Assembly: GCA_048885865.1 (NCBI GenBank)
Contig: JBHLLF010000002.1
Coordinates: 96,001 to 160,000, forward strand
Source: Candidatus Hermodarchaeota archaeon
Lineage (GTDB): Archaea > Asgardarchaeota > Thorarchaeia > Thorarchaeales > Thorarchaeaceae
DNA: 64,000 nucleotides
Direction: 5' to 3'
Shown here: positions 40,077 to 57,359 of the stretch, piece by piece
How positions within the stretch are numbered: position 1 is the stretch's first letter
Layout of the letters: each line of letters opens with the position of its first letter
Notes under the pieces: generated by a model
Seen by the model: only the letters and a program-made list of their open reading frames with translations
Database searches by the model: none
Told to the model about the DNA's origin: nothing
Translations under genes and position numbers: made by a program

Positions 40077-40184
40077 CTCTGACTACACAGTATAGGCTCG
40101 GGACCGCATTCCCATGGTATACTTTTAAAGTTTTATGACCATATAATAGTGCGTTAATGAGACGTATGAGACCTCGGGGTGGTT

Positions 40185-40460
40185 TCGTCCAGAAGAAATG
40201 CTTATGTTGCTAGGACGCATACTTTCTGGTCGGACGTCTGGCTGAAGCCTGTTGCTCCTCACACATGCAGAAGAGTGTGTGACCGGATTCAACGTCTTTC
40301 CGAATGTCCTCCTGTAGGGAGATTCGGCTCTCACCCAGTGTTCAGAGAACGGCGTTGTATCACGTGGTTTGGAGCACCACTTACTCACGTTCAAATTGAG
40401 AGGGTGGACCTCAAATGCCCAGATGGGCACCAAGTCTTTGGCTCTGGCCAGCGTCCCCCT
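40185..40460 (+). ncRNA. Putative multi-stem non-coding RNA, family unrecognised
   Basis: Closing helix 40232-40249/40440-40456 enclosing at least five hairpins; G-U pairs favour the + strand; AT-rich TATA-like tract 40123-40148 upstream. Confidence 0.55.
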
Positions 40461-40485
40461 ATTCTTCAGGAATCTATTTCTCAGC

Positions 40486-41646
40486 TCAGAGACTCTCAGC
40501 CAATAGATCTACAATATCAGCGACTCCAATTGAGCTTCCTTCCTGACTTGCTCCCGCATCTAGGTTGCTTACGCAGAAGGGACATGCAGAAGCAATGAGG
40601 TCAGCTCCTGTTTCAATTGCCTGCCTAACCCTATCTGACGCTATTCGTTTGGAGAGATCTGAATCATATGAACGTACACCTCCACCTGCGCCACAACATA
40701 GTGCTGCTTCTCTCGTGGATTCCATCTCTACTAACTCTATCCCCGGAATATCAGAGAGAATCTCCCGCGGTGCATCATAAATTCTGAATTCTCTGCCAAG
40801 ATGACAGGGATCATGGTATGTGACTATCCTTTTCCGTCCAGGTCCTCGAAAGCTCAAATCTCCGTTTCTTATAAGTTCAGCCGCATACTCCACAATATGT
40901 ATCACTTGAGGAAGATCAATACCGAAGCGCTTTGGGAAATCCGACTTGAGTGTTTTTAGGCATCCAGGGCAAGATACAACAATACGCTCAGCTCCTGCCA
41001 CTTCAAATGCTCTTTTGATTCGTTCAGCATTCTCCTTAGCTTCCTCCACTCTGCCAGTCCTAATCATGATAGACCCACAGCATGGTTCTTCCCCAAGCAC
41101 CCCGAAGTCTTCCGCAGCTGCACTCAATATCTTCACAGTTGAGATGGCGATGTTTGGAAGTTTCATCCCTGCGGTACATCCCGTGTAGTAAATCGTAGAT
41201 GCCTTGGCTGGGACATCAAATCCGACCTCCCCTACCCAGTTTCTCCTGATGCTGTTGTCATCCTCATAGGGATTCAGATATTTCAGAATCCGTTCTGCAA
41301 TGGCATCCCTTGATTCATTTGGTGCATCACTCAGAACTTGACGGACCTGTTCGAGAGTCTGCTTGGGATCGAATTCAGCTGCGCAAATCTCTGTGCAATT
41401 TCCACATAGCATGCATGTGAAAATCGATTCGACATTTTCTGCAGTCTTCTCCAGCCTTCCATCGAGGAGCGCCTGTGCAACCTGGATTCTCCCTCTCATG
41501 AAGCTGGTTTCGAAACCACTTGAGTTCCTCCAGACTGGACATACGCCCTCGAAGCCTATAGATTCCAAGACGGCATTTCGACAGATGCCACACCTTCTGC
41601 ACTGAGCCAAGTTCTCAAGGAGGTCATCTATGTCTGCTCCGACCAA
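40486..41646 (-). CDS. GlcF/HdrD-like Fe-S protein (2x[4Fe-4S] plus two CCG domains)
   Basis: CRRCGIC, CMLCGNCTEIC, CCGS, YHDPCHLGR, CCGAGGG. Confidence 0.92.
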   Translation of the reverse strand: MVGADIDDLLENLAQCRRCGICRNAVLESIGFEGVCPVWRNSSGFETSFMRGRIQVAQALLDGRLEKTAENVESIFTCMLCGNCTEICAAEFDPKQTLEQVRQVLSDAPNESRDAIAERILKYLNPYEDDNSIRRNWVGEVGFDVPAKASTIYYTGCTAGMKLPNIAISTVKILSAAAEDFGVLGEEPCCGSIMIRTGRVEEAKENAERIKRAFEVAGAERIVVSCPGCLKTLKSDFPKRFGIDLPQVIHIVEYAAELIRNGDLSFRGPGRKRIVTYHDPCHLGREFRIYDAPREILSDIPGIELVEMESTREAALCCGAGGGVRSYDSDLSKRIASDRVRQAIETGADLIASACPFCVSNLDAGASQEGSSIGVADIVDLLAESL

Positions 41647-41649
41647 CTC

Positions 41650-43056
41650 TCAAATACCTCCTAAGACACCTGGATTCATTATCCCCTTGGGATCGAGCGA
41701 TGCTTTCAGAGACTTCACAAGTCCAAGGTATCTGTCCATCTCCTCAACGCCATCACTCCAATAAGGTGCTAGCTTGAAAGGAACTGCACCAGTCTTGAAT
41801 AGGCGGCGAGCTAGCTCTCCGTGTGCTTCACGCGCCCTCTGCGCTTCATCCCTATCTTGTGGATCATAGAATAGCTGTGGATAGAAATTGTAGCTAGCAT
41901 GTCCCGATTGGAAACCTGCAGTGTGACCTAGAATGTTATATTCCTCCATTACGGACCAGAACTCTTCGATAGTCCTGTGCCAATTTGATGGTGTTTGATG
42001 GTGATACAATATTCGCCAATGCCACCTATGGACATAGGAAGCTCGAACTAGAATCCTCATTCTATTCTTCCACTCACCTTCTGGCAATTCCTTGATGCCA
42101 ATTTCATAGCCACCAGTGCTTTCGCATAGTTTCCTAGTCATCTCAATGTCACTTTGGAGTTGGTCCTTTCGTAATGATCCAAGAACAAGAGAAACTGTGT
42201 ATTTTGGCCAATCATATTTGGGAATTCCAAATTCCTCTCCTATCATTTCGAGGAATAAATCGAGAATGTGACCTTCATAGATGACTGCCCAGAGAGAGCC
42301 AACATCATTTTGCTTTAGCTCAATTAGGAAATGCTCAGCCTGGCCTGCGTCGTCAAAGCCAAAAGTATTGTAGTCGAACTGATGCATCCGCTTGTGGGTC
42401 TTGAGTGATACTTTCGTGATGATGCCAAAACTGCCTAAGGAACCAATAAAGAGCCCAGTAAGGTCTGGACCAAACGAATATCGCAGGAAAGGTCCTGGTG
42501 CATTTGGATTAGCCTCAGATCCAGTCTGAATGATGCGGCCATCCGATAGCACCACCTCCAATCCTAGGACAAATTCTGCAATGCATCCGAATTTCGATGA
42601 TCCAAATCCCGCTCCGTTTACAGCAACATTTCCTGCGACTGTCGCCGAAAGTGATGAGCCAGGGTAGAATGGAACCCACAGGTCATCCGGCTTGAGAAAA
42701 CTGTCAAGCATGCCGTATGTGACACCCGCTCCAACGGTAACTGAACGAAGTTCTTTGTACAGAATAATATTGTTCAATCGCATCATTTCTATGACAAGTC
42801 CGCCATCTTTGGGAATAACTTCTCCTTGAAGGCTAGAACCGCCTGATCTCGGTATAACCGGGATTTGATTCTTGTTTGCAATCCTCATGATTTGCGCAAC
42901 TTCATCGGTATTTCCAGGACGGACCACAGCTCCTGGCATCACAGGGTCATAGCTAGTTGATGCTGAAACAGAATATGCAATTAGCACATCTTTTCTAGTC
43001 GATACATACTCCTTTCCTACAATCTTCTCCAATTCAATGATAACTTTAGGATCCAT
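41650..43056 (-). CDS. GlcD/D-lactate-dehydrogenase-like FAD-binding oxidoreductase
   Basis: PRSGGSSL, ATVAGNVA.NG.G, GSLGSFGIIT, LDPKGIMNPG. Confidence 0.9.
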   Translation of the reverse strand: MDPKVIIELEKIVGKEYVSTRKDVLIAYSVSASTSYDPVMPGAVVRPGNTDEVAQIMRIANKNQIPVIPRSGGSSLQGEVIPKDGGLVIEMMRLNNIILYKELRSVTVGAGVTYGMLDSFLKPDDLWVPFYPGSSLSATVAGNVAVNGAGFGSSKFGCIAEFVLGLEVVLSDGRIIQTGSEANPNAPGPFLRYSFGPDLTGLFIGSLGSFGIITKVSLKTHKRMHQFDYNTFGFDDAGQAEHFLIELKQNDVGSLWAVIYEGHILDLFLEMIGEEFGIPKYDWPKYTVSLVLGSLRKDQLQSDIEMTRKLCESTGGYEIGIKELPEGEWKNRMRILVRASYVHRWHWRILYHHQTPSNWHRTIEEFWSVMEEYNILGHTAGFQSGHASYNFYPQLFYDPQDRDEAQRAREAHGELARRLFKTGAVPFKLAPYWSDGVEEMDRYLGLVKSLKASLDPKGIMNPGVLGGI

Positions 43057-43149
43057 TTTATCACCTCCGCGTACCTGAGCGAATCATAAAATGCACTGAA
43101 TCATCATCAAGTCGCTCGTGGTTTTTTGGGCCGCTTTTATAGATGCTGC

Positions 43150-43800
43150 TTATTTTCTGACATCATTAACAATATCAAGAAACATCTTGACATTTTCAGT
43201 GATGACTTCATAGCGGCCATCCTTTATTGCCTTCTTATCAGTAATGGCGCTACCTACACCTAACGCAAAAGCCCCTGCTTCCAGCAATGGACGTGCCGTT
43301 TCTAAATTGACGCCCCCTGTGGGTACTAGCGGAATCTGGGGAAGAGGTGCTCTCACAGCCTTGATGTACTCGGCTCCTCCAAGATTTCCACATGGAAAAA
43401 TCTTGACTGCATCGGATCCAAGATTATACGCATCAAGAATCTCTGTTGGTGTCAGCGCGCCAGGAATGCAAGGCTTGGAGTGTTTCTTTGTTGCTTCGAT
43501 AAGCTCCCTTGAGTATCCCGGACTTACAATGAATTCGCTGCCTGCAGCCACTGCATCGTCAACCATCTTGGCGTTGAGAACCGTTCCGGTACCAATCAGA
43601 ACCTTGTCACCTAGTTCATCAGTGAGCTGTCGGACTACATCGGTTGCTCCCGGAACACTGAAGGTGACTTCAATGATTCTCACTCCACCCTTGAGGAATG
43701 CATCTGCGACCTTCATTGCAGTTTCAGAAGAATCGACGCGGATTATTGGAATAAGTCCAGTCCTCTGTATCAACTCTAGAGCTTTCTCTTTTTCCCACAT
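43150..43800 (-). CDS. eda: KDPG/KHG aldolase
   Basis: IEVT, GTGTV, FIVSP, PGALTPTEI, KIFP (Schiff-base Lys), PTGGV. Confidence 0.92.
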   Translation of the reverse strand: MWEKEKALELIQRTGLIPIIRVDSSETAMKVADAFLKGGVRIIEVTFSVPGATDVVRQLTDELGDKVLIGTGTVLNAKMVDDAVAAGSEFIVSPGYSRELIEATKKHSKPCIPGALTPTEILDAYNLGSDAVKIFPCGNLGGAEYIKAVRAPLPQIPLVPTGGVNLETARPLLEAGAFALGVGSAITDKKAIKDGRYEVITENVKMFLDIVNDVRK

Positions 43801-43810
43801 GACTTCAACC

Positions 43811-44806
43811 CTACCTATCTATCCTGAGGCCGCGTTCACGTCCTTTGATGAGCTTCTCAACTTCTTCCTTGTATACGAAGGCCAGGTCTCCAGGCACGGA
43901 GTGTTTCAATGCTGAAAATGCAGAGCCAAAGTCCACAGCTTTCTGAAGGTCGTTCAGAATGAGGTAGCCGTAGATGAAACCTGCGCTGCATGAGTCGCCT
44001 CCTCCAAGTCGATCTATCACTTCAACATCATATACGGGGCTTTTGTAGACTTTACCATCAGAATACGCGAATACTGACCATTTGTTTGTAAGAACGGTGG
44101 GAGTTTCTCGAATCGTGATTACAACCACTTCAAATCCGAATTTCTCAGTCAGCTTCTTGGCGACGTCTTCGTAGTCCTTACCCTCAATACCATAGACCAC
44201 CTTCGTGTCCTCTTCTGTGGTAATCAATATGTCAATGTACTCTGAGGCTGGCTCAGTAAACTCTCTCGCCTCTTCTGGTGTCCATAGCTTGCCTCGATAG
44301 TTTACATCGTATGAAACCTTGCAGCCCTTTTCTTTAGCTATCGTCAAAACTTCCGTAGTGGCATCTGCGCATGAGGCACTCAATGCAGGAGTGATGCCGC
44401 TGGTGTGGAATAGCTTTGTGCCATCAAGTATCTTGTTCCATGGAACCTCTCTAGGCATGATCTTGCTTATTGCGGACTCCTTCCTATCGTAGATGACTCG
44501 ATTTGTCCTAGGAGCCGCTCCAAATTCAACGAAGTAGACGCCGCAGCGACTATCTGGATCCCAGAGAATATGGGATGTATCAACACCATGCTCTCTAGCC
44601 TGGTTTCGGATGAAATGGCCAATGGAGTTGTCACCGAGCTTCGTTACATAGGCTGAGCTGAGCTCAAGACGGGAACATGCCACAGCCACATTCATCTCAG
44701 CTCCCCCTGCATGAGCGTTGAAGCTGTGAGTCTGTTCAAATCTCATAAAGTTGGGAGGTGATAGTCGGAGCATGACCTCTCCAAAGGTGACTACATCATA
44801 TCCCAT
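43811..44806 (-). CDS. kdgK: 2-Keto-3-deoxygluconate kinase (PfkB family)
   Basis: FGEVMLRLSP, GGAEMNVA, YDRK.SA, DVNYR.KLW, DRLGGGDS. Confidence 0.88.
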   Translation of the reverse strand: MGYDVVTFGEVMLRLSPPNFMRFEQTHSFNAHAGGAEMNVAVACSRLELSSAYVTKLGDNSIGHFIRNQAREHGVDTSHILWDPDSRCGVYFVEFGAAPRTNRVIYDRKESAISKIMPREVPWNKILDGTKLFHTSGITPALSASCADATTEVLTIAKEKGCKVSYDVNYRGKLWTPEEAREFTEPASEYIDILITTEEDTKVVYGIEGKDYEDVAKKLTEKFGFEVVVITIRETPTVLTNKWSVFAYSDGKVYKSPVYDVEVIDRLGGGDSCSAGFIYGYLILNDLQKAVDFGSAFSALKHSVPGDLAFVYKEEVEKLIKGRERGLRIDR

Positions 44807-44885
44807 TGAATCACACTCTTTGGTCGATTAAACAAGAAGAGAAGGAATGGTCTGAGAGTTAAATCTGCCGTAAGTAGGATGATGC

Positions 44886-47231
44886 TTAAGTGCTAGGCCT
44901 GAACTCCGTTCGTGCAATTACCTCATCCTGAACAAATGGGTCAAGTTCAATGAAGTAAGCACTGTAACCTGCAACGCGTACGATGAGATCCCTATGTTGC
45001 AGGGGATTCACTTTCGCATCCTCCAATGTTTCCTTGTCCACGACATTGAACTGTACATGCAGTCCTCCAAGCTTGAAATATCCGTCAATTAGACTGATGA
45101 ATTTCTTTCTGCTAGAAGTGGATTCGAAGTAATCCGGAGTGAACTTCATGTTGTAGAGTGTTCCATTGTAGCAAAGCCTGTGGTCCAGTCGCGCCACGGA
45201 GTTCATAGCAGCAGTTGGCCCATGAACGTCGCGATTCTGAGTTGGCGACACGCCGTCAGAAATCATCTTTCCAGCTTTTCTGCCATCTGGAGTTGCTCCA
45301 AGAACCTCGCCTTGAGGTATATACATAGAAACTGAGAATAGTGCACCATGATACGGACCATTTCGCGTTGTCATCCTTTTCTGAATTGAATTACAGAAGG
45401 CTCTGCCTGTGTCACGAGCTAAGAAGTCTACTCGCTCAATGTCATTTCCGTATTTATCAGGATCGTTCTCAAGACGAATTCTGAATTCTTCTTTACCTTC
45501 ATAATCGTTCTCTAGCATCTGAAGCATCTGGTCCATCGAGATTTCAGTTGACTCGAATACGTATTTCCTTACCATCGAAAGCGAGTCGGCTACAATCGCA
45601 ACGCCGGTGCCCATTATGCCTCCGGAGTTATACTTCGCTCCTCCTTCCTGCATTGTCTTTCCAATTTCCAAGCAACCCTGAAGGAGTGATGAGATGAAGG
45701 GTGTAGGTTTTTCGCTTGAGAGAATACCTGCCGCTACTCTATCCGCCCTCGTGAGGAGGTCGATGGCGTGATCAAGCTGTTTCTCATAAGCTTGCCAGAG
45801 TTCATCAAATGATTTGAAGTCCCTTGGGTCACCAGTCAAGAGACCTACCATTTCTCCAGTACCCGGGTCTCTACCGTTATTGAGGGTTATCTCTAGAATC
45901 TTTGGCAAATTGACATAGCCGATATTCTGCCTTGGATCTGACTTTCCAGCTATGATAGGCTCTACGCATCCAAGGATGGAATAGTCATGGATTTCGGAGG
46001 GATCCGTTCCCTTATCCTTCATTAGTGGGATTATAATCTCATCATTGAATAGGCCCGGCATACCTAGTCCTTTGGAGATGACATCAACAACCTTGAGTTT
46101 GAATCTCTCTGGTGTCCCCTTATGCCACCTAAATGAAATGGTGGGCTGAGTAACTCTTGTGTTTCCAGTGGCCTCAAGAATGAGTTCTGTTAAGTCATTA
46201 CATGCATCATCACCATTGGAGTCCTGACCGCCAATGGTAAGATTCTGAAACATAGGAAATCCTGCAAAAGCTACGCTATAGTATTCATTGCGGAGCTTGA
46301 TTACAGAGGCGAATTTTATCCACAACATCTCTAGGAGCTCGATGGCTGTTTCCTTGTTTATCAGACCTGACGCAATATCCTTGCTGTAGAAGGGATACAT
46401 GTATTGGTCGAATCTTCCAGTTGATACAGAATGGCCATTCGACTCCAATTGCACTAGCAAATGAATGAACCAAAATGACTGTAGCGCCTCATGAAATGAA
46501 GTGGCTGGCTTGGCAGGCACTCTTCTACATATCTCTGCCATTTGCTCAAGTTCTTTCCTGCGTTCTGGTTCATTTGTATCTGCAGCCATTTGCTCTGCCA
46601 AGTCTGCATATCGATTGGCGAACCCAATAACTCCTGCTATTGAAATTTCAACAGCCTCATAGAATTCCTGTTTGTCCTTGTCCTTTGTCTTGGCCTGAAG
46701 GCTAGCAGCTTCACTGGCCATCGCTTCAAGCCCTTCAGATAGAACACGTTCGTAGTCTGGAATGAAGTGGCCAATTCCAGTACCTGGCGCTCCAATAGTG
46801 AACAATCCAGCTTTAGATGCACGCTGTGAATCCGCAGGCATTTCTTCCCGAGCGATTTCAGCTGTGCTTTTCCCTTTCCAATATTCAAAGACATCTCTGA
46901 GTGTCTTTTTGTCGGATTCTTCTATCTCAAAACGTTCAGTTCGTCGCTTGTTGAATCGGTCAAGCTCGTCATAAATCCAAGTCCAACTATATTCTGGGAA
47001 GATCTGACAGGAGCGAGGAGTGGGTCCCATGTTTGCCACAATGACCTCTTCTGGCTCAATTCGTAGAGTCATATTATCTAGGACGAATGAAAATGCCTTT
47101 GCCATTCTAATCTTAGCTGGCTCATCTTCATGCGATTTGAGATACTCTGTGAAAAGCCTCGCTCTCTCTGAGGATATAGTTGGCTGAGCATCTAACATGC
47201 GGTCGCGCAAGCGACTGGTCCGAGAGTTCAT
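44886..47231 (-). CDS. Glycyl radical enzyme, PFL2/diol-dehydratase-like
   Basis: GCVEP active-site Cys motif, RVAGYS glycyl loop, ESNGHS, GRFDQY; ORF extends to 47249. Confidence 0.95.
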   Translation of the reverse strand: MNSRTSRLRDRMLDAQPTISSERARLFTEYLKSHEDEPAKIRMAKAFSFVLDNMTLRIEPEEVIVANMGPTPRSCQIFPEYSWTWIYDELDRFNKRRTERFEIEESDKKTLRDVFEYWKGKSTAEIAREEMPADSQRASKAGLFTIGAPGTGIGHFIPDYERVLSEGLEAMASEAASLQAKTKDKDKQEFYEAVEISIAGVIGFANRYADLAEQMAADTNEPERRKELEQMAEICRRVPAKPATSFHEALQSFWFIHLLVQLESNGHSVSTGRFDQYMYPFYSKDIASGLINKETAIELLEMLWIKFASVIKLRNEYYSVAFAGFPMFQNLTIGGQDSNGDDACNDLTELILEATGNTRVTQPTISFRWHKGTPERFKLKVVDVISKGLGMPGLFNDEIIIPLMKDKGTDPSEIHDYSILGCVEPIIAGKSDPRQNIGYVNLPKILEITLNNGRDPGTGEMVGLLTGDPRDFKSFDELWQAYEKQLDHAIDLLTRADRVAAGILSSEKPTPFISSLLQGCLEIGKTMQEGGAKYNSGGIMGTGVAIVADSLSMVRKYVFESTEISMDQMLQMLENDYEGKEEFRIRLENDPDKYGNDIERVDFLARDTGRAFCNSIQKRMTTRNGPYHGALFSVSMYIPQGEVLGATPDGRKAGKMISDGVSPTQNRDVHGPTAAMNSVARLDHRLCYNGTLYNMKFTPDYFESTSSRKKFISLIDGYFKLGGLHVQFNVVDKETLEDAKVNPLQHRDLIVRVAGYSAYFIELDPFVQDEVIARTEFRPST

Positions 47232-47287
47232 CGTCAAATATACTAGCACGATAGCTATTTACTCTTCCCCTAGCGCCAAAATTCGAG

Positions 47288-48448
47288 CTATCGAAGGAGC
47301 TTCGGCAAATATGTATCAAGTCTCTGGATGGCATCTTCAATCGTTTCAGTAGACATGGCATAGCAGATACGAAGGAACCCTTCACCATAATGGCCAAAAG
47401 CTGAACCATGAACTGTGACAACACCGGTGTCCTCTACAAGCTTAACTGCCAGGTCTAATGACTTGATTCCGAATGCGCTAACATCAGGGAAGACATAGAA
47501 CGCGCCCCCAGGCGGAGCTAATTCAACTCCCTCAATTGCATTCAATCCCTTTGTTATGATATCTCGTCGCTTTCTGAATGTGTCAGTCATTATCTTCACA
47601 GAGTCCTGTGGTCCACTTACAGCTGCTTGTGCAGCTTTTTGTGAGATTGAGGTAGGCATCGATAACACATGTTCCTGAAGTTTGACCATATTCTCTATTA
47701 TCTCTGCGGGACCAGTTGCGAAGCCAATTCTCCATCCTGTCATTGCGTAGGTCTTTGAGAACGAGAAGAGTGAGACTGTTCTTTCCTTCATTCCAGGTAG
47801 CGATCCAATGAAGAGCGGCTTTTCATCGTTCCATCTAAACTTCTCATACGCACCATCCGCTAGGACATACAAATCATGCTCGATTGCGATTTCAGCGATT
47901 CTCTTGAGTTCGTTTCTCGGAATGGTTCCCCCAGTAGGATTGTTGGGGAAATTGAGAACCAGCAGCTTAGTCTTGTCAGTAATCAATTCCAGGAGGTCGT
48001 CAGCTTTGAAGGAAAAACCCAGCTCTCTCTTAAGCTGAATTGGAACCCCTATTCCACCACACATTGCGATATGTGCAGCATGGCTTACAAATCCAGGGTC
48101 TGGATAGATTACCTCATCTCCTGAATCGACAATGACAAGATTAGAGAGCAATAGGGAGCCCATGCCTCCTGCAGTGCAGATAATCTCTGTGACAGGGTCA
48201 GCGTCTATGCCATTATCTCGCTTAAGCTTCTCTGCAAATGCTTCGCGGACTTCAGGTAAGCCAGCATTGTGGGTATACTTCGTGTACCCGTCTGCAATTG
48301 CCTGATATGCGGCATCCTTGATGTACTGTGGAGTATCGAAATCAGGCATACCGACTGTCATATCAAGTGCATTCTCTCTACCCATTGCCATTCTGAACAT
48401 CTTTCGAATCTCGCTGGCCACAATGATTTCATTTCTCTTCGCGAGCAT
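47288..48448 (-). CDS. PLP-dependent aminotransferase class I/II
   Basis: GMPDF, NFPNNPTG, SFSKTYAMTGWRIG. Confidence 0.93.
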   Translation of the reverse strand: MLAKRNEIIVASEIRKMFRMAMGRENALDMTVGMPDFDTPQYIKDAAYQAIADGYTKYTHNAGLPEVREAFAEKLKRDNGIDADPVTEIICTAGGMGSLLLSNLVIVDSGDEVIYPDPGFVSHAAHIAMCGGIGVPIQLKRELGFSFKADDLLELITDKTKLLVLNFPNNPTGGTIPRNELKRIAEIAIEHDLYVLADGAYEKFRWNDEKPLFIGSLPGMKERTVSLFSFSKTYAMTGWRIGFATGPAEIIENMVKLQEHVLSMPTSISQKAAQAAVSGPQDSVKIMTDTFRKRRDIITKGLNAIEGVELAPPGGAFYVFPDVSAFGIKSLDLAVKLVEDTGVVTVHGSAFGHYGEGFLRICYAMSTETIEDAIQRLDTYLPKLLR

Positions 48449-48597: not shown

Positions 48598-49266
48598 ATG
48601 ATTGACAAACGACAAGCAATAATCGATCGTTGCATGAAGCTCTATGTGGCGGCATTCTCAGATGCGGCTGATGAGGTTGGCATCGGTCGAGTATGCATGG
48701 ATAGTGGCATAGTTCCTTTGACAAAGAATGTGAGAATGGCTGGATTTGCACGAACCGGTAGAATGGTCCGTTCGCCATCTCAGCAGCCTTATGACGAGAA
48801 GCAACTCGATCATCTAATGAGCTTGTCGACAGACGCCGAGCCTGGAGACCTTTTGGTCATCGACTCTGGAGGAGCGAAGGATTGCTCAGTATGGGGCCAA
48901 GTGTTGACAAAGATAGGCATCCCTCGGGGCATTCAAGGTGCTGTGGTCGATGGCACATCACGAGACATTGTAGATATTGACGAGGTTGGGTTTACGGTAT
49001 TTGCCCGAGGACGTCATCCAGGCACTATGAGAGGTCGACTTGATGTTGAATCCGTAAACCAACAGATAGTGTGCGGCGGAGTCATTGTGAATCCGGGCGA
49101 TCTTATCTTTGCGGATGGAGACGGAGTTGTAGTGATTCCTCAGGACAAGATTGAGGAGGTCCTAAAGCACGCTGAGGGAGTAGTTGATACTGACAACTGG
49201 TGGTCAGAGAAGCTTGATGATGGCGAGGACCCTCATGAGCTTCACAAGGAACGGCCTATTCCCTAG
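48598..49266 (+). CDS. RraA/HMG-aldolase family protein
   Basis: PGDLLVID, WGQVLT, VVDGTSRD, VNPGDLIFADGDGVVVIP. Confidence 0.9.
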   Translation: MIDKRQAIIDRCMKLYVAAFSDAADEVGIGRVCMDSGIVPLTKNVRMAGFARTGRMVRSPSQQPYDEKQLDHLMSLSTDAEPGDLLVIDSGGAKDCSVWGQVLTKIGIPRGIQGAVVDGTSRDIVDIDEVGFTVFARGRHPGTMRGRLDVESVNQQIVCGGVIVNPGDLIFADGDGVVVIPQDKIEEVLKHAEGVVDTDNWWSEKLDDGEDPHELHKERPIP

Positions 49267-50393
49267 AAATTGAGGGGATACCTTCCCCTCTTCTCGGCAT
49301 AGTCATACATCTCAAGAATCTTCTCTGGAGTAGAATCCGGCTGTATGTTGTGGGCTGGAGCTAGAATATAGCCTCCACCCGGTGCGAGTGCTTTCAAGCG
49401 CGTATCTATCTCGCTCCTGAGGTCATCAGAAGTGCCTCTCTCAGACATAGCCCGTTGAAGGTCAACTCCGCCATGAAAGGTTAGTCTGTCACCGTATTTC
49501 TCTTTTAGAATAGCAGAGTCCATTCCCTTTGCAAGAGGCTGAATCGGATTCAGAATATCCACATCAACCTCCAATAGGTCATTAATCATCGGCTCTACTG
49601 CTCCGCAGCTGTGATACAGAATTTTGACGTGAGGAGCTCTCTTGTGGATGTCACCATAGATTTTCTTGTGCCGAGGTTTTACGAGCTTCTTGTACATCCG
49701 AGGACTCATAATCAGACCATCTTGATGCCCGAGGTCGTCACCTACTTGTACAATGTCCAGATACTCTCCTGCTTCATCCAAAAGGACTCTATTCATATCG
49801 AGTGCCAACTCCATTGCTTTGTCCATCATTGCTTCCGCAAGCTTTGTGCGTTGGCCCAGATCAATCAAGAACTTGTCAAATCCGCGCATATAGTGCTCAC
49901 ATATCTCAAAGACTCCCCATGGCCCGCCCACCATCCCAACCACTGCATAGTCAGTTTTATCATGGAGGTACTTCGCCCACTCAACAACGCCTTCCATTCG
50001 TGAAGAATCATCAGCATCCGGCCACGGATACTCCTCGACTTGTTCCACTTCTGTGAACTCAGCCCATGGGAAATAGGTCACTTCCCAGTAGAGGCCGATG
50101 TATTTTCCGCGAAAGCCATATTCTGTGTCGGTAGAGCCATCAGGATAGGTCCTCATCTTGAAACTTGAAGATGGATTCATGTACACACGTCGGAAGTCTA
50201 CATGAAGTCTACGCAGCATTTCCTCAGAGATTTTCCATGCTTCCATTATACCCCATTCTTGATCCTCCTTGGCAGTTATGCCTAGGTGATCTCGCAAGTT
50301 GCGGTACGCAGCCGACGTTGTCCAATAGTCGATTGGCACCCTATCTGGCTCCTCATGGTTAACAGCTTTGTGGAATCTCTCTCGTGAACTCAT
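49263..50393 (-). CDS. UroD/MtaA-CmuA family protein (putative methylcorrinoid methyltransferase)
   Basis: PDRVP, GDDLG, ILYHSCG, LNPIQ, GGYILAPAHNI. Confidence 0.85.
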   Translation of the reverse strand: MSSRERFHKAVNHEEPDRVPIDYWTTSAAYRNLRDHLGITAKEDQEWGIMEAWKISEEMLRRLHVDFRRVYMNPSSSFKMRTYPDGSTDTEYGFRGKYIGLYWEVTYFPWAEFTEVEQVEEYPWPDADDSSRMEGVVEWAKYLHDKTDYAVVGMVGGPWGVFEICEHYMRGFDKFLIDLGQRTKLAEAMMDKAMELALDMNRVLLDEAGEYLDIVQVGDDLGHQDGLIMSPRMYKKLVKPRHKKIYGDIHKRAPHVKILYHSCGAVEPMINDLLEVDVDILNPIQPLAKGMDSAILKEKYGDRLTFHGGVDLQRAMSERGTSDDLRSEIDTRLKALAPGGGYILAPAHNIQPDSTPEKILEMYDYAEKRGRYPLNF

Positions 50394-50527
50394 TCTTGAT
50401 TGACACTCCTGAGAATGTGCTAATTCCGCTTGTGGGATTTAACTCCGCCTTAAGATGCAACCGCTAATTAAACCTTCAGCGGAAATGTTTATGTAGTTCG
50501 CAGCGTCAGGGCGTCTTCTTAGGGAGA

Positions 50528-51601
50528 TTGGCCAAATTGGGAAAAATGAAGGCTGGGATTCTTTACGGACCTAGGGATCTCAGGGTTGAGGAACTTGATA
50601 TTCCAAGCCTCAAACCTGGTTGGGTCTTGATCAAGGTGCGAGCAGCTGGAATTTGTGGAAGCGATTTACATCTGTACAAAGAGAAGACATTCATTCCAAT
50701 ATCATCTGTGATTGGTGAAGGAATCTATGTTCCAGGTCATGAGCTTGCAGGTGAAATTCAGGAGCTAGGCGAGGGTGTCACTGACCTTCAGGTTGGCGAC
50801 AGAGTGGTTGTTGAGCCCACAGTCAACTGTGGCAAGTGTGATTGGTGTAGAACCGGTCTGTATAATTTATGTGAGAATTCAGGACTAATCGGGTTTTACT
50901 ACATTGGTGGACTAGCTGAGTTTGTTGTAGCCCCAGCAGAGAAGTGCTTCAAGATTTCAGAGAAAACCTCGTTTGAAGAAGCGGCTATGATGGACTGCGC
51001 TGCAGTTGCCGAACGGGCCATCCGACGCGCTAAGGTATCTAACGAAGACAGAGTGGCCATCCTAGGTTCTGGGACCATCGGTCTCTTTGCAACTCAGGGT
51101 GTTCTAGCAGCTGGAGCCCGAGAGGTCTTTGTCACTGGCACACACAAATTTCAGATTGAGGCTGCGAAACGCTTTGGAGCAGCCGCTGCTATTAACGCAA
51201 GGACTGAAAACGTGGTTGAGAAAATAATGGAATTAACTTCTGGAAAGGGGGTGGATAAGGTCATTGAGGCAGTTGGAGGAGAAGCACCTGTCTTGGATGA
51301 GGGCGTCACCATTCTTAGGAGGCGCGGCATTATTGTTGCGACTGGCATCTTCTTGAATCCAGTGCCTATCAATATGTTCAGCCTCATTACCAAAGAAGTC
51401 ACACTAACGGGCGCGTGGGGATATGCATATTGGACCCATCTAAAGGAATTCGCTGTGTCCTTAGAGTTATTGGAATCAGGGAAAATCGATGCTAAGTCCT
51501 TGATTACTCACAAATTCCCACTCGAAAAGGCATCAGAAGCTTTTGATATCGCTTTGGATAAGAAGAAATCACAGTCTATCAAGGTCCAGATTACCTTCTA
51601 A
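50528..51601 (+). CDS. Zn-dependent alcohol/polyol dehydrogenase (MDR)
   Basis: GICGSD, GHE, CGKCDWC..C structural Zn site, GSGTIG. Confidence 0.93.
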   Translation: MAKLGKMKAGILYGPRDLRVEELDIPSLKPGWVLIKVRAAGICGSDLHLYKEKTFIPISSVIGEGIYVPGHELAGEIQELGEGVTDLQVGDRVVVEPTVNCGKCDWCRTGLYNLCENSGLIGFYYIGGLAEFVVAPAEKCFKISEKTSFEEAAMMDCAAVAERAIRRAKVSNEDRVAILGSGTIGLFATQGVLAAGAREVFVTGTHKFQIEAAKRFGAAAAINARTENVVEKIMELTSGKGVDKVIEAVGGEAPVLDEGVTILRRRGIIVATGIFLNPVPINMFSLITKEVTLTGAWGYAYWTHLKEFAVSLELLESGKIDAKSLITHKFPLEKASEAFDIALDKKKSQSIKVQITF

Positions 51602-51621
51602 TCGAAAAATCATGAACTAAG

Positions 51622-52140
51622 GTGAAAGAGTTGTCTGACGAATTAAGCTGGGAGCTATGCAACGAACTTGTTGCAGGAGAGATAGCCACTAGATGCTTGA
51701 TTGTTTCCTATTTCGTTCACAGATTGCCTAGGAAGTATGGCGAAGAGATCCTGGAAGACATCAAGCAGGCTAACTATGATGCTGGATATGTGGCAGGAAA
51801 GAATGCAGCCAAGGCAGTTGGCAAGAATGACCTCAAGACTCTTGGTGAGCTATTTGGGGGCACGAAAGTCTTCAATCCAGAAATAATTGGACTTACTGAG
51901 GATAGGGCAGTTATTCATTGGCGTAGATGTCCAGTCCCAACTCTCGTTGCTACATTCGAAGAGATGGGCTTGACTGAAGATTATCTAGCGACCGTCTGTC
52001 CAATACTCGAGCTATTTGACAATGGATTCGTTGAGGGTTGGAATCCTGAGCTAGAAGCCCAGAATCCTACAGAGGTTGGAGAAACACATCTGCAAAAGGG
52101 TGGCGATTTCTGTACAGTTGTGATTGCCAAGAAGAGCTGA
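51622..52140 (+). CDS. ATC-hydrolase/V4R-like protein
   Basis: RCP...C...D.GF..GWNP....GGDFC pattern. Confidence 0.7.
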   Translation: MKELSDELSWELCNELVAGEIATRCLIVSYFVHRLPRKYGEEILEDIKQANYDAGYVAGKNAAKAVGKNDLKTLGELFGGTKVFNPEIIGLTEDRAVIHWRRCPVPTLVATFEEMGLTEDYLATVCPILELFDNGFVEGWNPELEAQNPTEVGETHLQKGGDFCTVVIAKKS

Positions 52141-52181
52141 ATTGAAGTCAGAGATTCTGGCTGTTAGTGGATTTATTAATT

Positions 52182-52952
52182 TCATCCCCCAGGGGTGTCA
52201 ACATCCTTGTACCACTTCTTTGATGTCCCAACTCTAGCTCTCATCTTCCAAGATCTGCCTTTTGGCTTGTCCTCAATGCTCTGAAGAAGCTCTTCTATTC
52301 GAGAACTTGCAACCTCCTTTTCTTGATTATCGAGAACAGTGAACTCACGCATCAATGATGCGACCTTTTTCAGGTTGGTAGTAACTGTATAATAGAACCC
52401 CCATTCCTTGGAGAGTATCTCAGCTATGTAGCCAGCATTGATGGTGTTCTCATCAGTATCGCCAATTTCGTGAGCTAAAATCAGCATGGTGGTGTCGATA
52501 ATGTCCTTCTCGCTAATCTTCACAATCTGCATCTTCTGAAGTAGCAATTCTGCAAGAGGAACGGTAGGACTATCAATTTCTAATCTCTTCTTATATTCGA
52601 TCTTATGACACATCTCTAGTCGATCAAGAAAGACATCTATATGTCGCCCATCAGAGTTGTTTATGAAAATCATTCTGCCTCCCAATGCAAAGCTAAAAGA
52701 GAGCAATCTTCGAGAGTAGTTTTGGCCTTCGAAGAACTTCTCTATTTTGGATGACTGTTTCTCATAGGCGACATAATCTATGTCAGTGATGAACCTACCC
52801 ATTTTCTCATGCAGATACGCATATTCTGGGCTGTGAAGTCGAATTGCTATTGCCCCCATGAGTCTAAGAATGATTCCTTGTTTGTTCGCCTCCTCGATGA
52901 TTCTAAGAGCTTCGTCAACAAACACTTGGTGATTTCCTTTCTCTCCTTCCAT
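52182..52952 (-). CDS. Nucleotidyltransferase-fold protein
   Basis: RLMGAIA...TDIDYV (GG..DxD-like), IDVF, LLLQKMQI..KD..D; ORF extends to 52976. Confidence 0.7.
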   Translation of the reverse strand: MEGEKGNHQVFVDEALRIIEEANKQGIILRLMGAIAIRLHSPEYAYLHEKMGRFITDIDYVAYEKQSSKIEKFFEGQNYSRRLLSFSFALGGRMIFINNSDGRHIDVFLDRLEMCHKIEYKKRLEIDSPTVPLAELLLQKMQIVKISEKDIIDTTMLILAHEIGDTDENTINAGYIAEILSKEWGFYYTVTTNLKKVASLMREFTVLDNQEKEVASSRIEELLQSIEDKPKGRSWKMRARVGTSKKWYKDVDTPGG

Positions 52953-53042
52953 GTACAACACTTCGAGGAATAGCAAATTCCTGGCTTGAATTCTGTAACG
53001 TTTAAATATCTATTTCGGCCGCTGGCTTTGCGAGGTTTAATC

Positions 53043-53993
53043 TTGACCCGCATCTTCTTCTCCTGTGATGCTCACGGAAGCGTTCCGGTCCTTCGCAAGA
53101 TGGTGAAAGTCCACGAGGCCTACAATTGCGATGTTGTCATGATGTGTGGTGACCTCACCGGAAAGGCAGTTGTGCCTATCGTTGAGGAGAAGCCAGGCGT
53201 CTGGTGGTCATCACCGTGGGGACGAAAGGAAACATACAAGTCCGAGAAGGACCTTCAAAGGGCTAAAGACATCTATGAGAAACGCGGCTTCTATTGGTTC
53301 TTCTCAAATGAGTCGGAACTAGAAGAGCTTCAAGATTCGCCAGAGAAAGTCAAATCCCTTTTTCAGAAGCTGATGCTTGAGCGAATGGAGTTTTGGATTA
53401 ATCTCATTGAGGAGAAAGTTCCTAATGACATAATGGTCATAGTGAGTCCTGGAAACGATGATGCAAAGGATATTGATGAGCTCATTATGAAAAGCAGTCG
53501 GATTACGCAGTCTATCGAAAAAGTTGTTGATCTTGACGATAGACATCAGATGATCTCCTGTGAATGGGTGAATTCAACGCCTTGGGATACTCCGCGTGAG
53601 TGTCCTGAGGATGAGTTAATGGTCAAGCTGGAGACGGAATTTGGTCGAATCAGCACACATGAGAATCTAGTCTGCAACTTCCATGCCCCTCCGTATGGGA
53701 CACTGATAGATCTTGCACCAAAACTGGATGACAAGCAACAGGTTAAGGTCCGATATGGAGCTCCTGAAATGGTGCCTGTTGGAAGCAAAAGCGTCCGCGA
53801 AACCTTCGAGAGATACCAGCCTCTCCTAGGTCTTCACGGACATATCCATGAATCAGTAGGTATGGAACACATTGGTCGTACACTCTGCGTCAATCCAGGC
53901 TCCGCATACACGCAGGGTATGTTGAATGCATTTGTAATTGATCTGCCTAGGAAGCCAGAAGAAGAGGTGGTAGCGGTCAGTGTGACAGCTTAG
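53043..53993 (+). CDS. Metallophosphoesterase (Icc-like)
   Basis: DAHG, GDLTGK, PGNDD, HAPP, HGHIHE; TTG 53043 follows GAGGT. Confidence 0.88.
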   Translation: MTRIFFSCDAHGSVPVLRKMVKVHEAYNCDVVMMCGDLTGKAVVPIVEEKPGVWWSSPWGRKETYKSEKDLQRAKDIYEKRGFYWFFSNESELEELQDSPEKVKSLFQKLMLERMEFWINLIEEKVPNDIMVIVSPGNDDAKDIDELIMKSSRITQSIEKVVDLDDRHQMISCEWVNSTPWDTPRECPEDELMVKLETEFGRISTHENLVCNFHAPPYGTLIDLAPKLDDKQQVKVRYGAPEMVPVGSKSVRETFERYQPLLGLHGHIHESVGMEHIGRTLCVNPGSAYTQGMLNAFVIDLPRKPEEEVVAVSVTA

Positions 53994-54010
53994 CGTATTT
54001 TGGTGGGTGA

Positions 54011-54709
54011 TTGAAGATGTCCATTGATAGTGGCGAAAGAAGGCGTGCAAAGGGGAAAGCCAAGAGGTCGCAACCAGGTGAAGTTGATACTGATGATTTA
54101 CGAAAAGCAATCTACCACATTGACGCCTATCGGTCGCACATCTTCTACAATCTCAGTTTCGTAGAAAAGATGGTGGAGCAGGGAACCCTTGGGCGCATAT
54201 TTGGAGAAAACTGGAAGAAGCTGAGTAGAAGACTCATTAGAATGGCACGTGGTCCCACATCAAATCCCCATACTCTTCGTCTTGCACGGTATCAGTCGTA
54301 TACCGAAGCATTCTGGCAGATAGCAATACCTATTGTCTTCATCTTGCTGATAGTTGGCCTCATCGCACCGGATATTCCATTTATCAGTACGATTGCCCCA
54401 TATGTAATGATTGTTGCATTTTCTGCAATGATAATTGGACTTCTCGGAAGATCTCTAATTGGAGCGCGCATTGCGAAGAGTATCGATGAATACTTTAAGA
54501 ATAATCCCGAGGCGCAGCAACTTCGAGTTGAAGAATTGAAATCAGTAGTCCAATTGTTAATCAATGAACTGCGACGTGCACTGCATCAATTGAAAGAAGA
54601 GCCTGATGAACATCTGGTTGGAATTGGGCTTTTAGACTATAATCACATCGAAGTCGTGAAAGAGCCCAGGCCCTGGCGGAAATACTACCTAGTGAAGGTT
54701 ACGTTCTGA
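54011..54709 (+). CDS. Two-TM hypothetical membrane protein
   Basis: Central hydrophobic hairpin with soluble flanks. Confidence 0.7.
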   Translation: MKMSIDSGERRRAKGKAKRSQPGEVDTDDLRKAIYHIDAYRSHIFYNLSFVEKMVEQGTLGRIFGENWKKLSRRLIRMARGPTSNPHTLRLARYQSYTEAFWQIAIPIVFILLIVGLIAPDIPFISTIAPYVMIVAFSAMIIGLLGRSLIGARIAKSIDEYFKNNPEAQQLRVEELKSVVQLLINELRRALHQLKEEPDEHLVGIGLLDYNHIEVVKEPRPWRKYYLVKVTF

Positions 54710-54884
54710 AGTCTACCTATATCTCATGCTTGGAAATTCTAAGGACAACTGATGAACTTTAAACATAGTAGTCTACTCATTAAACAAAAACGGGAACTCT
54801 TATTACACAGAACACCTCCATTAGCGATTCATCTTCTCTGATTTAAGTTCGGAGGAGGTTAAAAGAAATAGAGGGAGAGATTAG

Positions 54885-56465
54885 ATGTCACAAGAAGTAC
54901 TCTTTCTAAGGCCAACCTCAGGGCTGACCAAGTATTTCGGTACATGGACCTCTCTGTTCGCAATTATTGGTGCAAGTCTAGGAACGTATCAATGGCTATT
55001 TGTTGGTATTCTACAGGATCTCTACCCGGGTATCAATGCCGGCATGACATGGGGAATAGGTATGTTCTTCATGCTCCTGTATACCCTCATGATGACACTC
55101 CTGTCTATGGCCATGCCTCGTTCTTCAGGCCTATACCAAATCTCTGCAAGAGGATTTAATCCAGTTGCGGGGACAATTGCGGTTTGGCGTGGTATAATAG
55201 CCAATCCCATCATCAAGACAAGTGAGTTCTACCTCTTTCTTGTATTCCTGGGCGCTGCATTCGCTCAGTGGGGCGCAGTTACGAATAATGCCGCAATGCA
55301 AGGACTCGGGGCTACCTTCTCCACACAGGAGCCGATGGTACTTGTTTTTGTTTCAATTCTATTAATGGCGTTATTCTCAGTAATTGCATACTTAGGGCCA
55401 TTACTCAAGATGGAACCCAGGATACAGATGGCGGGAGGGGTCTTCTCCACAATTGGATGGTTAATGGCGCTCTTCGTTCTCCTTGGTACTCCAACAACTG
55501 CTGTCCAGGGCCGCTGGGATGCAGTTTGGGGTGCAGGAGCGTATACAGAGGTGCAAACAGTGGCCGCTGCTGCAGGGTATGCAGCACCGGTGTTTAGTAT
55601 AGAAATGACACTGTTGGCAACGGTGTGGCCTATAGGCCTAACGTGGCCATATCTTATCCTGCTTTATGGTGGAGAGGTATCAGATCCAGCAAAGAACCTA
55701 GTGCTGACTCAGCTTCTGGGTGGGCTAATTCTTGCTGGATTGTTAACAGCAGGTGCTGGACTATTCCAAGGGGTCTTTGGGACCTTCTCAAGTGAATATG
55801 GCGTGGCAGCAGCATCAGGCAACTTGACGCAAACAGGTGTCTTCCAAGGAGGCTTAGGGACATTCACTGCGGTGTTAGCTGCAAATCCGTTTATCTCTGG
55901 ATGGATATTACTTTCACCAGTAGTCATCGGACTTACAGCAACTCCAATAAATATGGCGTGGGTCACGAGAGGATTCTTCCAGGCTTCACTCGACAGAATG
56001 ATGCCATCCGTCTTCGGCAGGCTCTCGAAGTATCACACACCAACCTATGCAATCCTATACTACTTCCTATTTGGTGCTCCGTTTGCATTTGCCTACGCAA
56101 ATCCAGGGCTAAGTGGCTTCCTGGCCGTAGTCACTTCGCTAGTGGGATTGTGGGGCATCGAGATGCTATTCCAGTCAATGGCTGCGTTACAATTGCCCTT
56201 CATACGGCGGCCGTTATATGAAGGGAGTATAAGAGCGCAACCTGAGATCGGCGGATTTGCCTTGGTATCGTTACTTGGCGTAATCATATTGCCAGTATCG
56301 TTATTCCTATTGATTGGCTTCTTCCAAGGGGCAGCATTTCTGTCGATCGTCTCGATGTGCGTCCAATATGGATTCTCGGCGTTATGGTTTGTGTATTTTG
56401 CACGGCGGTTACAGAAGCAGAATATAGACCTCGATGCAATATACACGTCATTATCACCTGAGTAA
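54885..56465 (+). CDS. APC-family amino acid/amine permease
   Basis: LFLRPTSGL, AMPRSSG.Y, R..F..S.DRMMP..F, TP. Confidence 0.9.
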   Translation: MSQEVLFLRPTSGLTKYFGTWTSLFAIIGASLGTYQWLFVGILQDLYPGINAGMTWGIGMFFMLLYTLMMTLLSMAMPRSSGLYQISARGFNPVAGTIAVWRGIIANPIIKTSEFYLFLVFLGAAFAQWGAVTNNAAMQGLGATFSTQEPMVLVFVSILLMALFSVIAYLGPLLKMEPRIQMAGGVFSTIGWLMALFVLLGTPTTAVQGRWDAVWGAGAYTEVQTVAAAAGYAAPVFSIEMTLLATVWPIGLTWPYLILLYGGEVSDPAKNLVLTQLLGGLILAGLLTAGAGLFQGVFGTFSSEYGVAAASGNLTQTGVFQGGLGTFTAVLAANPFISGWILLSPVVIGLTATPINMAWVTRGFFQASLDRMMPSVFGRLSKYHTPTYAILYYFLFGAPFAFAYANPGLSGFLAVVTSLVGLWGIEMLFQSMAALQLPFIRRPLYEGSIRAQPEIGGFALVSLLGVIILPVSLFLLIGFFQGAAFLSIVSMCVQYGFSALWFVYFARRLQKQNIDLDAIYTSLSPE

Positions 56466-57342: not shown

Positions 57343-57359
57343 ACTAGAGGTGATATTGC

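Follow-up and report, generated by a model that had tools for sequence, protein, structure and literature searches.

Functions have been assigned to pyruvate formate-lyase (PFL)-like glycyl-radical enzymes (GREs) exclusively in Bacteria, and archaeal clades of these enzymes carry no assignment (June 2026 review, PMC13450708). We analyzed a GRE gene and its neighbors in a window of 64,000 nucleotides (nt) from a member of the Asgard class Thorarchaeia (positions 96,001 to 160,000 of contig JBHLLF010000002.1, our contig C2, in the Candidatus Hermodarchaeota assembly GCA_048885865.1, a metagenome-assembled genome [MAG] of 3.58 Mb and 87% completeness). The gene stands beside homologs of 2-keto-3-deoxygluconate (KDG) kinase (kdgK) and KDPG (2-keto-3-deoxy-6-phosphogluconate) aldolase (eda), and we tentatively favor, at a little under an even chance, a role in which the GRE makes a 2-keto-3-deoxy acid for KdgK and Eda by radical elimination. 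As read from its sequence, the enzyme would be a 1,2-eliminase of new substrate specificity in a three-gene module with the kinase and the aldolase.

The most similar enzyme of solved structure is the B12-independent glycerol dehydratase of Clostridium butyricum (1r8w/1r9d), which aligns end to end with the Thorarchaeia GRE, belongs to the same fold families and shares the radical Gly, the Cys, the Glu of the CxE motif, His164 and His281/Ser282. Unlike it, the Thorarchaeia GRE has no adjacent activase, resides in an archaeal host and neighbors kdgK and eda instead of 1,3-propanediol genes. The propanediol dehydratase of Roseburia inulinivorans (5i2a) has the same catalytic set and shares Phe 339 and Val 642, but its Trp-His-Asp segment, Tyr640, an insertion and its microcompartment loci all have no counterpart in the Thorarchaeia GRE. 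Within Archaea, the PflD of Archaeoglobus fulgidus (2f3o), the sole archaeal enzyme of its kind with structural studies, is a PFL-like GRE of debated function (PMC13450708), and is distant from the studied enzyme (450.7 bits).

In pathway logic, the closest parallel is the “radical glycolysis” of Escherichia coli YbiW/PflD, where the deoxy-keto sugar derivative formed by a GRE is cleaved to central metabolites by a neighboring aldolase; anhydroglucitol- or anhydromannitol-6-phosphate is turned into 1-deoxyfructose-6-phosphate, on which the aldolase then acts (PMC13450708). YbiW/PflD belongs to another clade (494–518 bits vs 691 for glycerol dehydratase), is bacterial, works with an FSA-type aldolase and follows the phosphorylation step, whereas the Thorarchaeia locus has Eda and a KDG-type kinase. 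Semi-phosphorylative Entner-Doudoroff and uronate pathways likewise have adjacent KdgK and Eda homologs, but our genome yielded neither a known gluconate dehydratase family nor an identifiable glucose dehydrogenase, and the neighboring position is taken by the GRE. Full-text literature searches returned no paper that connects a GRE to KDPG aldolase, nor one on an Entner-Doudoroff-type route in Thorarchaeota. Set against these systems, the Thorarchaeia GRE appears to be a 1,2-eliminase in which both the pocket and the pathway context are new.

Catalytic residues, pocket and isolation of the enzyme

The ATG at 47231 is the most likely start of the GRE and matches the 781-residue database ortholog P0001; the longer open frame encodes 787 residues. 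It scores 754.7 bits against TIGR01774, the broad PFL2/glycerol-dehydratase subfamily (cut-off 678.2), and falls far below every NCBIfam equivalog cut-off, namely HpfG (633/1000), HpsG (570/1000), the PflD type (603/1109), HypD (596.6/1100), CutC (555.6/1050) and PFL (TIGR01255, 159.8/994). Its best solved relative is the glycerol dehydratase 1r8w (690.8 bits), followed by an unnamed “glycyl radical protein” (9rco) and then propanediol dehydratase. Scores to other solved GREs are 496 bits for HypD, 494 for HpyG, 463 for HpzG, 313 for TutD, 296 for MasD and 153 for E. coli PFL.

An earlier note on this DNA had likened the enzyme to glycerol and propanediol dehydratases by its motifs GIGHF, ESNGHS and GCVEP, and had pointed out a distinctive strand, ALFSVSMY; all four are present, as is the glycyl-radical motif RVAGYS, and neither the Cys-Cys pair of PFL nor the GGD motif of CutC, both reported there as missing, was found in the protein. 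The GRE has counterparts of C433, E435, H164, the radical Gly and the pair H281 and S282 (His-Ser in ESNGHS) of glycerol dehydratase, and GCVEP is invariant in 119 orthologs. In glycerol dehydratase, H164 donates the proton to the leaving group. The CxE motif defines the eliminase class (PMC13450708). By this class definition, the GRE is a predicted 1,2-eliminase and not a formate-lyase, decarboxylase or succinate synthase.

Relative to glycerol dehydratase, the pocket carries Phe for Tyr339, Arg-Gln-Asn for Trp445-His446-Asp447, Phe for Tyr640, Val for Ser642 and an APGTG loop in place of NYYYNG. Tyr339, Asp447, Tyr640 and the Trp-His-Asp segment are pocket residues of glycerol dehydratase (1r9d). 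A 12-position pocket signature is invariant in 119 full-length orthologs, apart from the middle residue of Arg-x-Asn (Gln, Pro or Ala). Since an invariant Arg and Asn replace Trp and Asp, and small residues replace an aromatic loop, the pocket suggests a substrate that is anionic (Arg and Asn gained, Asp lost) and larger (aromatic loop shrunken).

The genome encodes three more GREs, only 33–37% identical to the studied one, and we therefore counted database matches of at least 66% identity as orthologs. Such orthologs are confined to Thorarchaeia. Among 1.84 billion 50%-identity representatives, the GRE is the representative of its cluster, with the runner-up at 43% identity; none of nine near representatives exceeds any NCBIfam equivalog cut-off. 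In the tree, a long stem of 0.5 substitutions per site leads to the clade, which lies beside weakly supported, uncharacterised bacterial sisters. Clustering with a characterised enzyme of unrelated product had been named in the earlier note as a way for its proposal to fail; the GRE clusters with no characterised enzyme and forms an isolated Thorarchaeia clade with at most 43% identity to anything else.

In a search for a bacterial precedent, no kdgK or eda was seen near the closest GRE homologs (38–42% identity) in 56 bacterial loci, and clusters that share the Arg-x-Asn segment adjoin an FGGY kinase or an ABC sugar permease, on short contigs. One sister locus (L108:5018-11732) has two tandem GREs and two activases beside GntR, EamA and M20 peptidase genes; in another (L111:1-11367), the GRE adjoins an amino-acid-kinase-family gene, a Na-solute symporter and opine/hydroxyproline-dehydrogenase-like genes.

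Linkage to kdgK and eda and the missing dehydratase

The earlier note had described an operon of six co-oriented genes in the order aminotransferase (AT), GRE, KDG kinase, KDPG aldolase, flavin adenine dinucleotide (FAD) oxidoreductase and Fe-S subunit. The open reading frames lie in that order on the minus strand, each family assignment is backed by Pfam and NCBIfam profiles, and the successive gaps from AT to the Fe-S subunit measure 38–56, 79, 10, 93 and 3 nt. Co-orientation thus stands, but a single operon does not follow, given promoter-like blocks upstream of GRE and of kdgK and an AT and a FAD/Fe-S pair that are separable in other genomes. The window's close protein relatives are all named Thorarchaeota or Promethearchaeota.

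GRE, kdgK and eda are adjacent in about 20 Thorarchaeia loci, with GRE identities of 69–96%. The order AT-GRE-PfkB-Eda is kept in these species-genome loci and in three loci fetched by exact protein (GRE identity 77%, 72% and 72%). Across 87 Thorarchaeia species genomes from 17 genera, the GRE ortholog and Eda are each present in 61: both occur in 59 genomes and neither in 24, with GRE alone in two and Eda alone in two. The four mismatched genomes (G069, G006, G070 and G080) are 62–67% complete, and in three of them the gene lies no more than ∼750 nt from the contig start. Presence is mixed within genera g2, g6, g9, g10 and g13, and the pair has therefore been lost or gained repeatedly as a unit. 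Linkage of the GRE with kdgK-eda, whose conservation the earlier note had proposed to check, is thus kept across the class, together with co-occurrence.

Genome G005 (97% complete) departs from this arrangement. There, AT, kdgK and eda are adjacent without a GRE (L112:6806-9696), and a frameshift close to residue 180 divides eda into two frames. The single GRE ortholog, found on a different contig (L036:10001-12331), has three in-frame stops where the window gene has Gln, Gln and Arg codons. AT (57%) and PfkB (75%) are more diverged than in other genera. Judged from these frames, G005 looks like a decaying cassette, with MAG errors a possible contributor. In one genus (G077), a 1143-residue multi-PAS histidine kinase is encoded between GRE and kdgK (L113:5219-8650).

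From gene content and order, we read GRE-kdgK-eda as the functional core, with AT and the FAD/Fe-S pair as separable neighbors; AT is counted as separable because its ortholog persists in genomes that have neither the GRE ortholog nor Eda. These are G007, G016, G019 and G020, in which AT is retained at normal identity; the context in G019, the one examined, is unrelated.

The kinase has Thermotoga maritima KDG kinase 2afb as its best solved relative (276.7 bits) and scores 311.9 bits against the NCBIfam KDG/KDGal kinase profile, below the cut-off of 440, so that its exact substrate is not certain. Its YDR and NYR segments, which we take to be carboxylate-binding in KDG kinase, are conserved in the alignment with the T. 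maritima enzyme. The aldolase is the sole PF01081 match in the genome. Among natural solved proteins, T. maritima KDPG aldolase (1vlw/1wa3) is closest to it, and the two share the segments K-(I/L)-FP, E-(V/I)-TF, PTGGV and GVGSA (Schiff-base Lys and phosphate loop). The nearest KdgK homologs outside Thorarchaeia (Ranarchaeia and Chloroflexota, ∼60% identity) have no dehydratase in their gene contexts.

No IlvD/Edd or enolase-type dehydratase is encoded in the window, in line with the earlier note, and no IlvD/EDD or UxuA gene turned up anywhere in the 87%-complete genome, to which the UxuA search was confined. The genome's single strong enolase-superfamily protein is of the muconate-cycloisomerase/epimerase type, lies beside an acetyltransferase and is not an aldonate dehydratase. 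Across the 87 genomes, IlvD/EDD was found in six, a UxaA-type protein in one, UxaC in none and the archaeal gluconate/galactonate dehydratase family in one. Because the known dehydratase families are nearly absent from the class, about 60 genomes keep the KDG-kinase/KDPG-aldolase pair without a recognised substrate supplier, and in all those genomes the eliminase ortholog adjoins the pair. G071, of the same genus as our MAG, is the only same-genus MAG with IlvD/EDD and the only class member with a gluconate-dehydratase-family match; it comprises 510 contigs with ∼6% contamination, and these matches may be foreign contigs.

We also considered whether the GRE stands in for a missing dihydroxy-acid dehydratase of branched-chain amino-acid synthesis, given that the genome has ilvC and no ilvD, and rejected this as its main role. 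ilvC occurs in 2 of the 17 genera vs the widespread GRE ortholog, GRE orthologs coexist with IlvD/EDD in G074, G076, G077 and G078, and ilvC is solitary in the genome. The ilvC gene itself (ketol-acid reductoisomerase, over cut-off; G000:C7:94928-95851, L119:6905-7921) lies among unrelated genes. Class-wide, ilvC is found in two genera and IlvD/EDD in four, three of which lack ilvC; the sole overlap is one g1 MAG.

Neighboring genes, activases and spacer elements

The coordinates of the genes, GRE segments and spacer elements are given in Table 1.

Table 1. Genes, GRE segments and candidate promoter elements in the window
Feature	Position	Strand	Evidence
Fe-S subunit, 4Fe-4S dicluster and two CCG domains (GlcF/HdrD-like)	40486..41646	-	Pfam CCG, Fer4_8
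FAD-linked oxidase, D-lactate/glycolate dehydrogenase type	41650..43056	-	Pfam FAD_binding_4
Eda-type class I KDPG/2-keto-4-hydroxyglutarate (KHG) aldolase (eda)	43150..43800	-	TIGR01182, 201 bits vs cut-off 156
PfkB-family kinase (kdgK)	43811..44806	-	PF00294, 141 bits
10-mer CAGATTTAAC, 52–61 nt upstream of kdgK ATG; candidate promoter/operator of kdgK-eda	44858..44867	-	GRE-kdgK spacer alignment
GRE, 781 residues	44886..47231 (open frame from GTG 47249)	-	Pfam PFL-like PF02901, 713.6 bits; Gly_radical PF01228, 113.9 bits
Glycyl-radical motif RVAGYS, residues 758–763 of the 787-residue frame	44961..44978	-	Alignment; Pfam Gly_radical
DPRQN segment, Arg-x-Asn replacing Trp-His-Asp; candidate anion-binding site	45924..45938	-	Alignment to glycerol/propanediol dehydratases
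Cys loop GCVEP, thiyl-radical Cys and general-base Glu of CxE	45957..45971	-	Aligns to C433/E435 of glycerol dehydratase
GAPGTG-GIGHF segment, His equivalent to H164	46764..46793	-	Alignment to glycerol dehydratase
Purine-rich block then AGTAAATAG, 22–36 nt upstream of GRE ATG; candidate B recognition element (BRE)/TATA	47253..47267	-	AT-GRE spacers of ∼20 loci
Class I/II pyridoxal phosphate (PLP) aminotransferase (AT)	47288..48448	-	Pfam Aminotran_1_2, E 4e-68
RraA-like protein (HMG/CHA-aldolase or oxaloacetate-decarboxylase family), divergent from AT	48598..49266	+	Pfam RraA-like

Two spacers contain conserved elements. Upstream of the GRE, about 20 Thorarchaeia loci have a purine-rich block and, following it, AGTAAATAG, with AGTAA(A/T) across the loci, while the flanking spacer diverges; as a candidate promoter, this element would start a GRE transcript that is leaderless or has a short leader and does not depend on AT. 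Upstream of kdgK, 17 of 20 Thorarchaeia loci carry CAGATTTAAC unchanged and two more carry it with one mismatch, and the rest of the spacer diverges. Because both elements look like archaeal promoters or operators, AT, GRE, kdgK-eda and the FAD-CCG pair may be separate transcription units. A second A/T-rich box, TTGTTTAATC (44826-44835), resembles an inverted copy of CAGATTTAAC. As a regulon motif, CAGATTTAAC was rejected for lack of genome enrichment (4 copies vs ∼7 expected).

The best solved relatives of AT are the aromatic and aspartate aminotransferases of Pyrococcus horikoshii (320 bits), and those of the FAD oxidase are D-lactate dehydrogenase, glycolate oxidase and LctD. The Fe-S/CCG protein is probably the partner of the FAD oxidase, from which it is separated by 3 nt. 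This pair usually follows eda, at times behind an SCP2 gene and a second FAD gene; in L023 and L024 the FAD oxidase is not directly downstream of eda, and in L024 (same contig as L013) a FAD_binding_4/CCG pair is encoded upstream, on the other strand. Downstream of the Fe-S subunit in the window, 409 nt (40077-40485) have no called gene.

On the other side, URO-D, RraA-like and ATC-hydrolase-like genes usually precede the cluster, the RraA-like gene in most Thorarchaeia loci. The window has an amine-type island here (48598-59292), comprising the RraA-like aldolase/decarboxylase, a divergent URO-D/MtaA-like methyltransferase, a polyol-type Zn-dependent alcohol dehydrogenase (Zn-ADH), two ATC-hydrolase-like genes, a metallophosphoesterase, an APC permease, a corrinoid protein and an MttB-family methyltransferase; the gene set recurs in L017, L018, L023 and L032. 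The Zn-ADH exceeds the cut-off of Pfam Glu_dehyd_C, but its solved relatives are of the polyol/threonine-dehydrogenase type, and we rejected it as a glucose dehydrogenase on that ground.

Two radical S-adenosylmethionine activases of the genome exceed the TIGR02494 cut-off (321 and 297 bits), and neither is adjacent to the studied GRE. One is convergent with another GRE of the genome. The other (G000:C32:21963-22826, L118:6916-7869) has no GRE beside it, its neighbors being GNAT acetyltransferases and an MFS transporter. This orphan is likely the trans-activator of the three GREs without an activase of their own, and activation of the studied GRE in trans is plausible.

Proposed route and competing explanations

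Enzymes of the eliminase class convert -CH(OH)-CH(X)- to -CO-CH2- (PMC13450708). Because this is the step that makes a 2-keto-3-deoxy acid from a 2,3-dihydroxy acid or its 3-O- or 3-N-substituted form, we rate the supply of KdgK and Eda as the most likely role of the GRE, at a little under an even chance. We infer the substrate, the product and the order of steps as follows. A stand-alone activase encoded elsewhere in the genome would install the glycyl radical, and a thiyl radical on the GCVEP Cys would then take the carbinol hydrogen of an anionic, probably carboxylated, polyhydroxy substrate; the Glu would deprotonate that hydroxyl and the conserved His would protonate the neighboring leaving group. 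The simplest leaving group would be OH, from an aldonic acid (e.g. gluconate, mannonate or galactonate), and an ether oxygen or an amine could also serve. Elimination and return of the hydrogen would yield a 2-keto-3-deoxy acid (KDG or an isomer), which KdgK would phosphorylate and Eda would split into pyruvate and glyceraldehyde-3-phosphate. The GRE would thus fill the slot held elsewhere by IlvD/EDD-, UxuA-, UxaA- or enolase-type dehydratases, with AT and the FAD/Fe-S 2-hydroxyacid dehydrogenase as pyruvate/2-oxo-acid handling neighbors that need not be obligatory.

The earlier note had put forward a radical-entry Entner-Doudoroff-like route, by dehydration or deamination. This route is partly supported: the isolated clade and the kept kdgK-eda linkage do not contradict it, and the pathway hole extends to the class, but the six genes are not one inseparable unit, and the deamination variant is weakened by the persistence of AT without GRE in four genomes. 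A full Entner-Doudoroff-type route from glucose is not evident from the gene content, because the Zn-ADH is of the polyol/threonine-dehydrogenase type and not a glucose dehydrogenase. The more specific proposal, that the GRE is a sugar-acid dehydratase, or a ring-opening or deaminating eliminase of an anhydro- or amino-aldonate, producing KDG for the kinase/aldolase pair in Asgard archaea, is a possibility that we advance with reserve, at clearly less than an even chance.

Several points weigh against a coupling of the GRE to KdgK and Eda. The kinase gene has its own conserved upstream element and may be transcribed apart from GRE. The unrelated genes Ino1, CpXC and VTT are syntenic across the same loci, which makes conserved order alone weak evidence in Thorarchaeia. 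Co-occurrence is the stronger evidence, but the genomes compared all come from a single class; relatives do not count as independent cases, common ancestry accounts for part of the order and co-occurrence, and neighboring genes tend to disappear together regardless of what they do. KDG could also be supplied via DEH or KduI-type enzymes. The cluster has no sugar-acid transporter or aldose dehydrogenase, the nearby permeases being of the APC amino-acid/amine type, and the weakly supported sister clades lie in amino-acid-like gene contexts. Within the GRE, hydrophobic residues (F, F, V, M) occupy the positions at which glycerol and propanediol dehydratase differ from each other, which is odd for a polyhydroxy chain. 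Lastly, non-radical dehydratases handle aldonates easily, and a costly, oxygen-sensitive radical enzyme is chemically unneeded for them.

Because dehydration of a plain aldonate needs no radical, we argue for a harder substrate; an anhydro-, amino- or otherwise blocked or phosphorylated aldonate would be chemically more sensible. For the same reason, and because of the hydrophobic specificity positions and the nearby APC-type transporters, we do not commit to gluconate.

Alternatively, the GRE could be an eliminase for another anionic diol or amino-alcohol, biochemically independent of KdgK and Eda, an explanation we consider unlikely but one that has to be taken seriously. Its substrate might be a C3–C5 dihydroxy acid, a sulfonate or phosphonate (sulfolactate-like or dihydroxypropanesulfonate [DHPS]-like), a 2-keto-3-deoxy acid whose terminal diol is dehydrated as in the Weimberg step, or a post-aldolase product, and the adjacency would be inherited synteny or shared regulation around pyruvate/2-oxo-acid metabolism. 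The pocket fits such a role: it is hydrophobic, two of its specificity positions (F, V) match propanediol dehydratase, and it has gained an Arg. So do the neighbors that handle 2-oxo and 2-hydroxy acids (AT, the D-lactate/glycolate-type dehydrogenase and the RraA-like aldolase/decarboxylase), the separate promoter-like elements and the general synteny of the region, unrelated genes included. The best equivalog score is that to the sulfopropanediol dehydratase HpfG, though far under its cut-off, and for a C-S-cleaving variant the sulfonate-binding Arg/Gln/Arg triad of C-S lyases (PMC13450708) is lacking, with Phe at position 640 and a retained counterpart of H164. What speaks for coupling instead is that GRE and Eda co-occur over 17 genera, with mixed presence within genera and low-completeness MAGs as the sole four mismatches, that both genes decay in G005 once the GRE has left the cluster, and that no other source of the KdgK substrate was found in the families searched.

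An amino-acid role is improbable. Here, GRE and AT would act on a hydroxylated amino or imino acid by HypD/HpyG-like chemistry, with the Arg binding the alpha-carboxylate, in a pathway that may follow quaternary-amine demethylation by the MttB/corrinoid/URO-D system encoded nearby. Bacteria are known to have GRE dehydratases for N-methyl-hydroxyproline (PMC13450708), AT lies immediately upstream of GRE in nearly all loci, and MttB, the corrinoid protein, the URO-D methyltransferase and APC permeases are conserved nearby; the weakly supported sister clusters P0126 and P0121 also have M20 peptidase, GntR, amino-acid-kinase, Na-solute symporter and opine/hydroxyproline-dehydrogenase-like genes. 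AT, however, is not dedicated to the GRE, as the four genomes that keep it alone and its unrelated context in G019 indicate. The GRE retains the diol-dehydratase H281/S282 pair, it scores 690 bits with glycerol dehydratase vs 463–496 with HypD, HpyG and HpzG and 597 vs 1100 for the NCBIfam HypD profile, and an amino-acid pathway would leave the co-occurring kdgK-eda without a role.

Thor- and Hermodarchaeota GREs have been read as alkyl- or benzylsuccinate synthases (Ass/Bss) for anaerobic hydrocarbon activation (PMC8163825), and the source of ortholog P0032 names it “Benzylsuccinate synthase alpha subunit”. For the studied enzyme this is very improbable: the eliminase CxE Glu and His are invariant, TutD and MasD score 313 and 296 bits vs 691 for glycerol dehydratase, and no small-subunit or beta-oxidation genes were called in about 20 syntenic loci, in which very small open reading frames were not searched exhaustively. 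A pyruvate or 2-ketoacid formate-lyase, as suggested by “formate C-acetyltransferase” in many automatic source annotations and by PFL-like Pfam membership, has next to no probability given the missing Cys-Cys pair and the scores for TIGR01255 (160 vs 994) and E. coli PFL (153 bits vs 691 for glycerol dehydratase).

The GRE clade is common among Thorarchaeia of sediments, being present in ∼60 of 87 species genomes, and its genomic partners are clear. If coupling to KdgK and Eda fails, the clade would still be an uncharacterised eliminase with an unusual anion-type pocket, and its current annotations would be wrong. If the enzyme does produce KDG from a sugar acid or an anhydro- or amino-aldonate, it would give an archaeal PFL-like GRE its first assigned function and would be the first case of a radical enzyme standing in for IlvD/EDD-, enolase- or UxuA-type dehydratases, providing a radical entry into an Entner-Doudoroff-type lower pathway. 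Should the coupling hold, it would add a new reaction type to the eliminase class, with a classical dehydratase replaced non-orthologously by a radical enzyme, and models of Asgard carbon flow in anoxic sediments would shift toward sugar-acid or related carbohydrate and away from hydrocarbons or formate.

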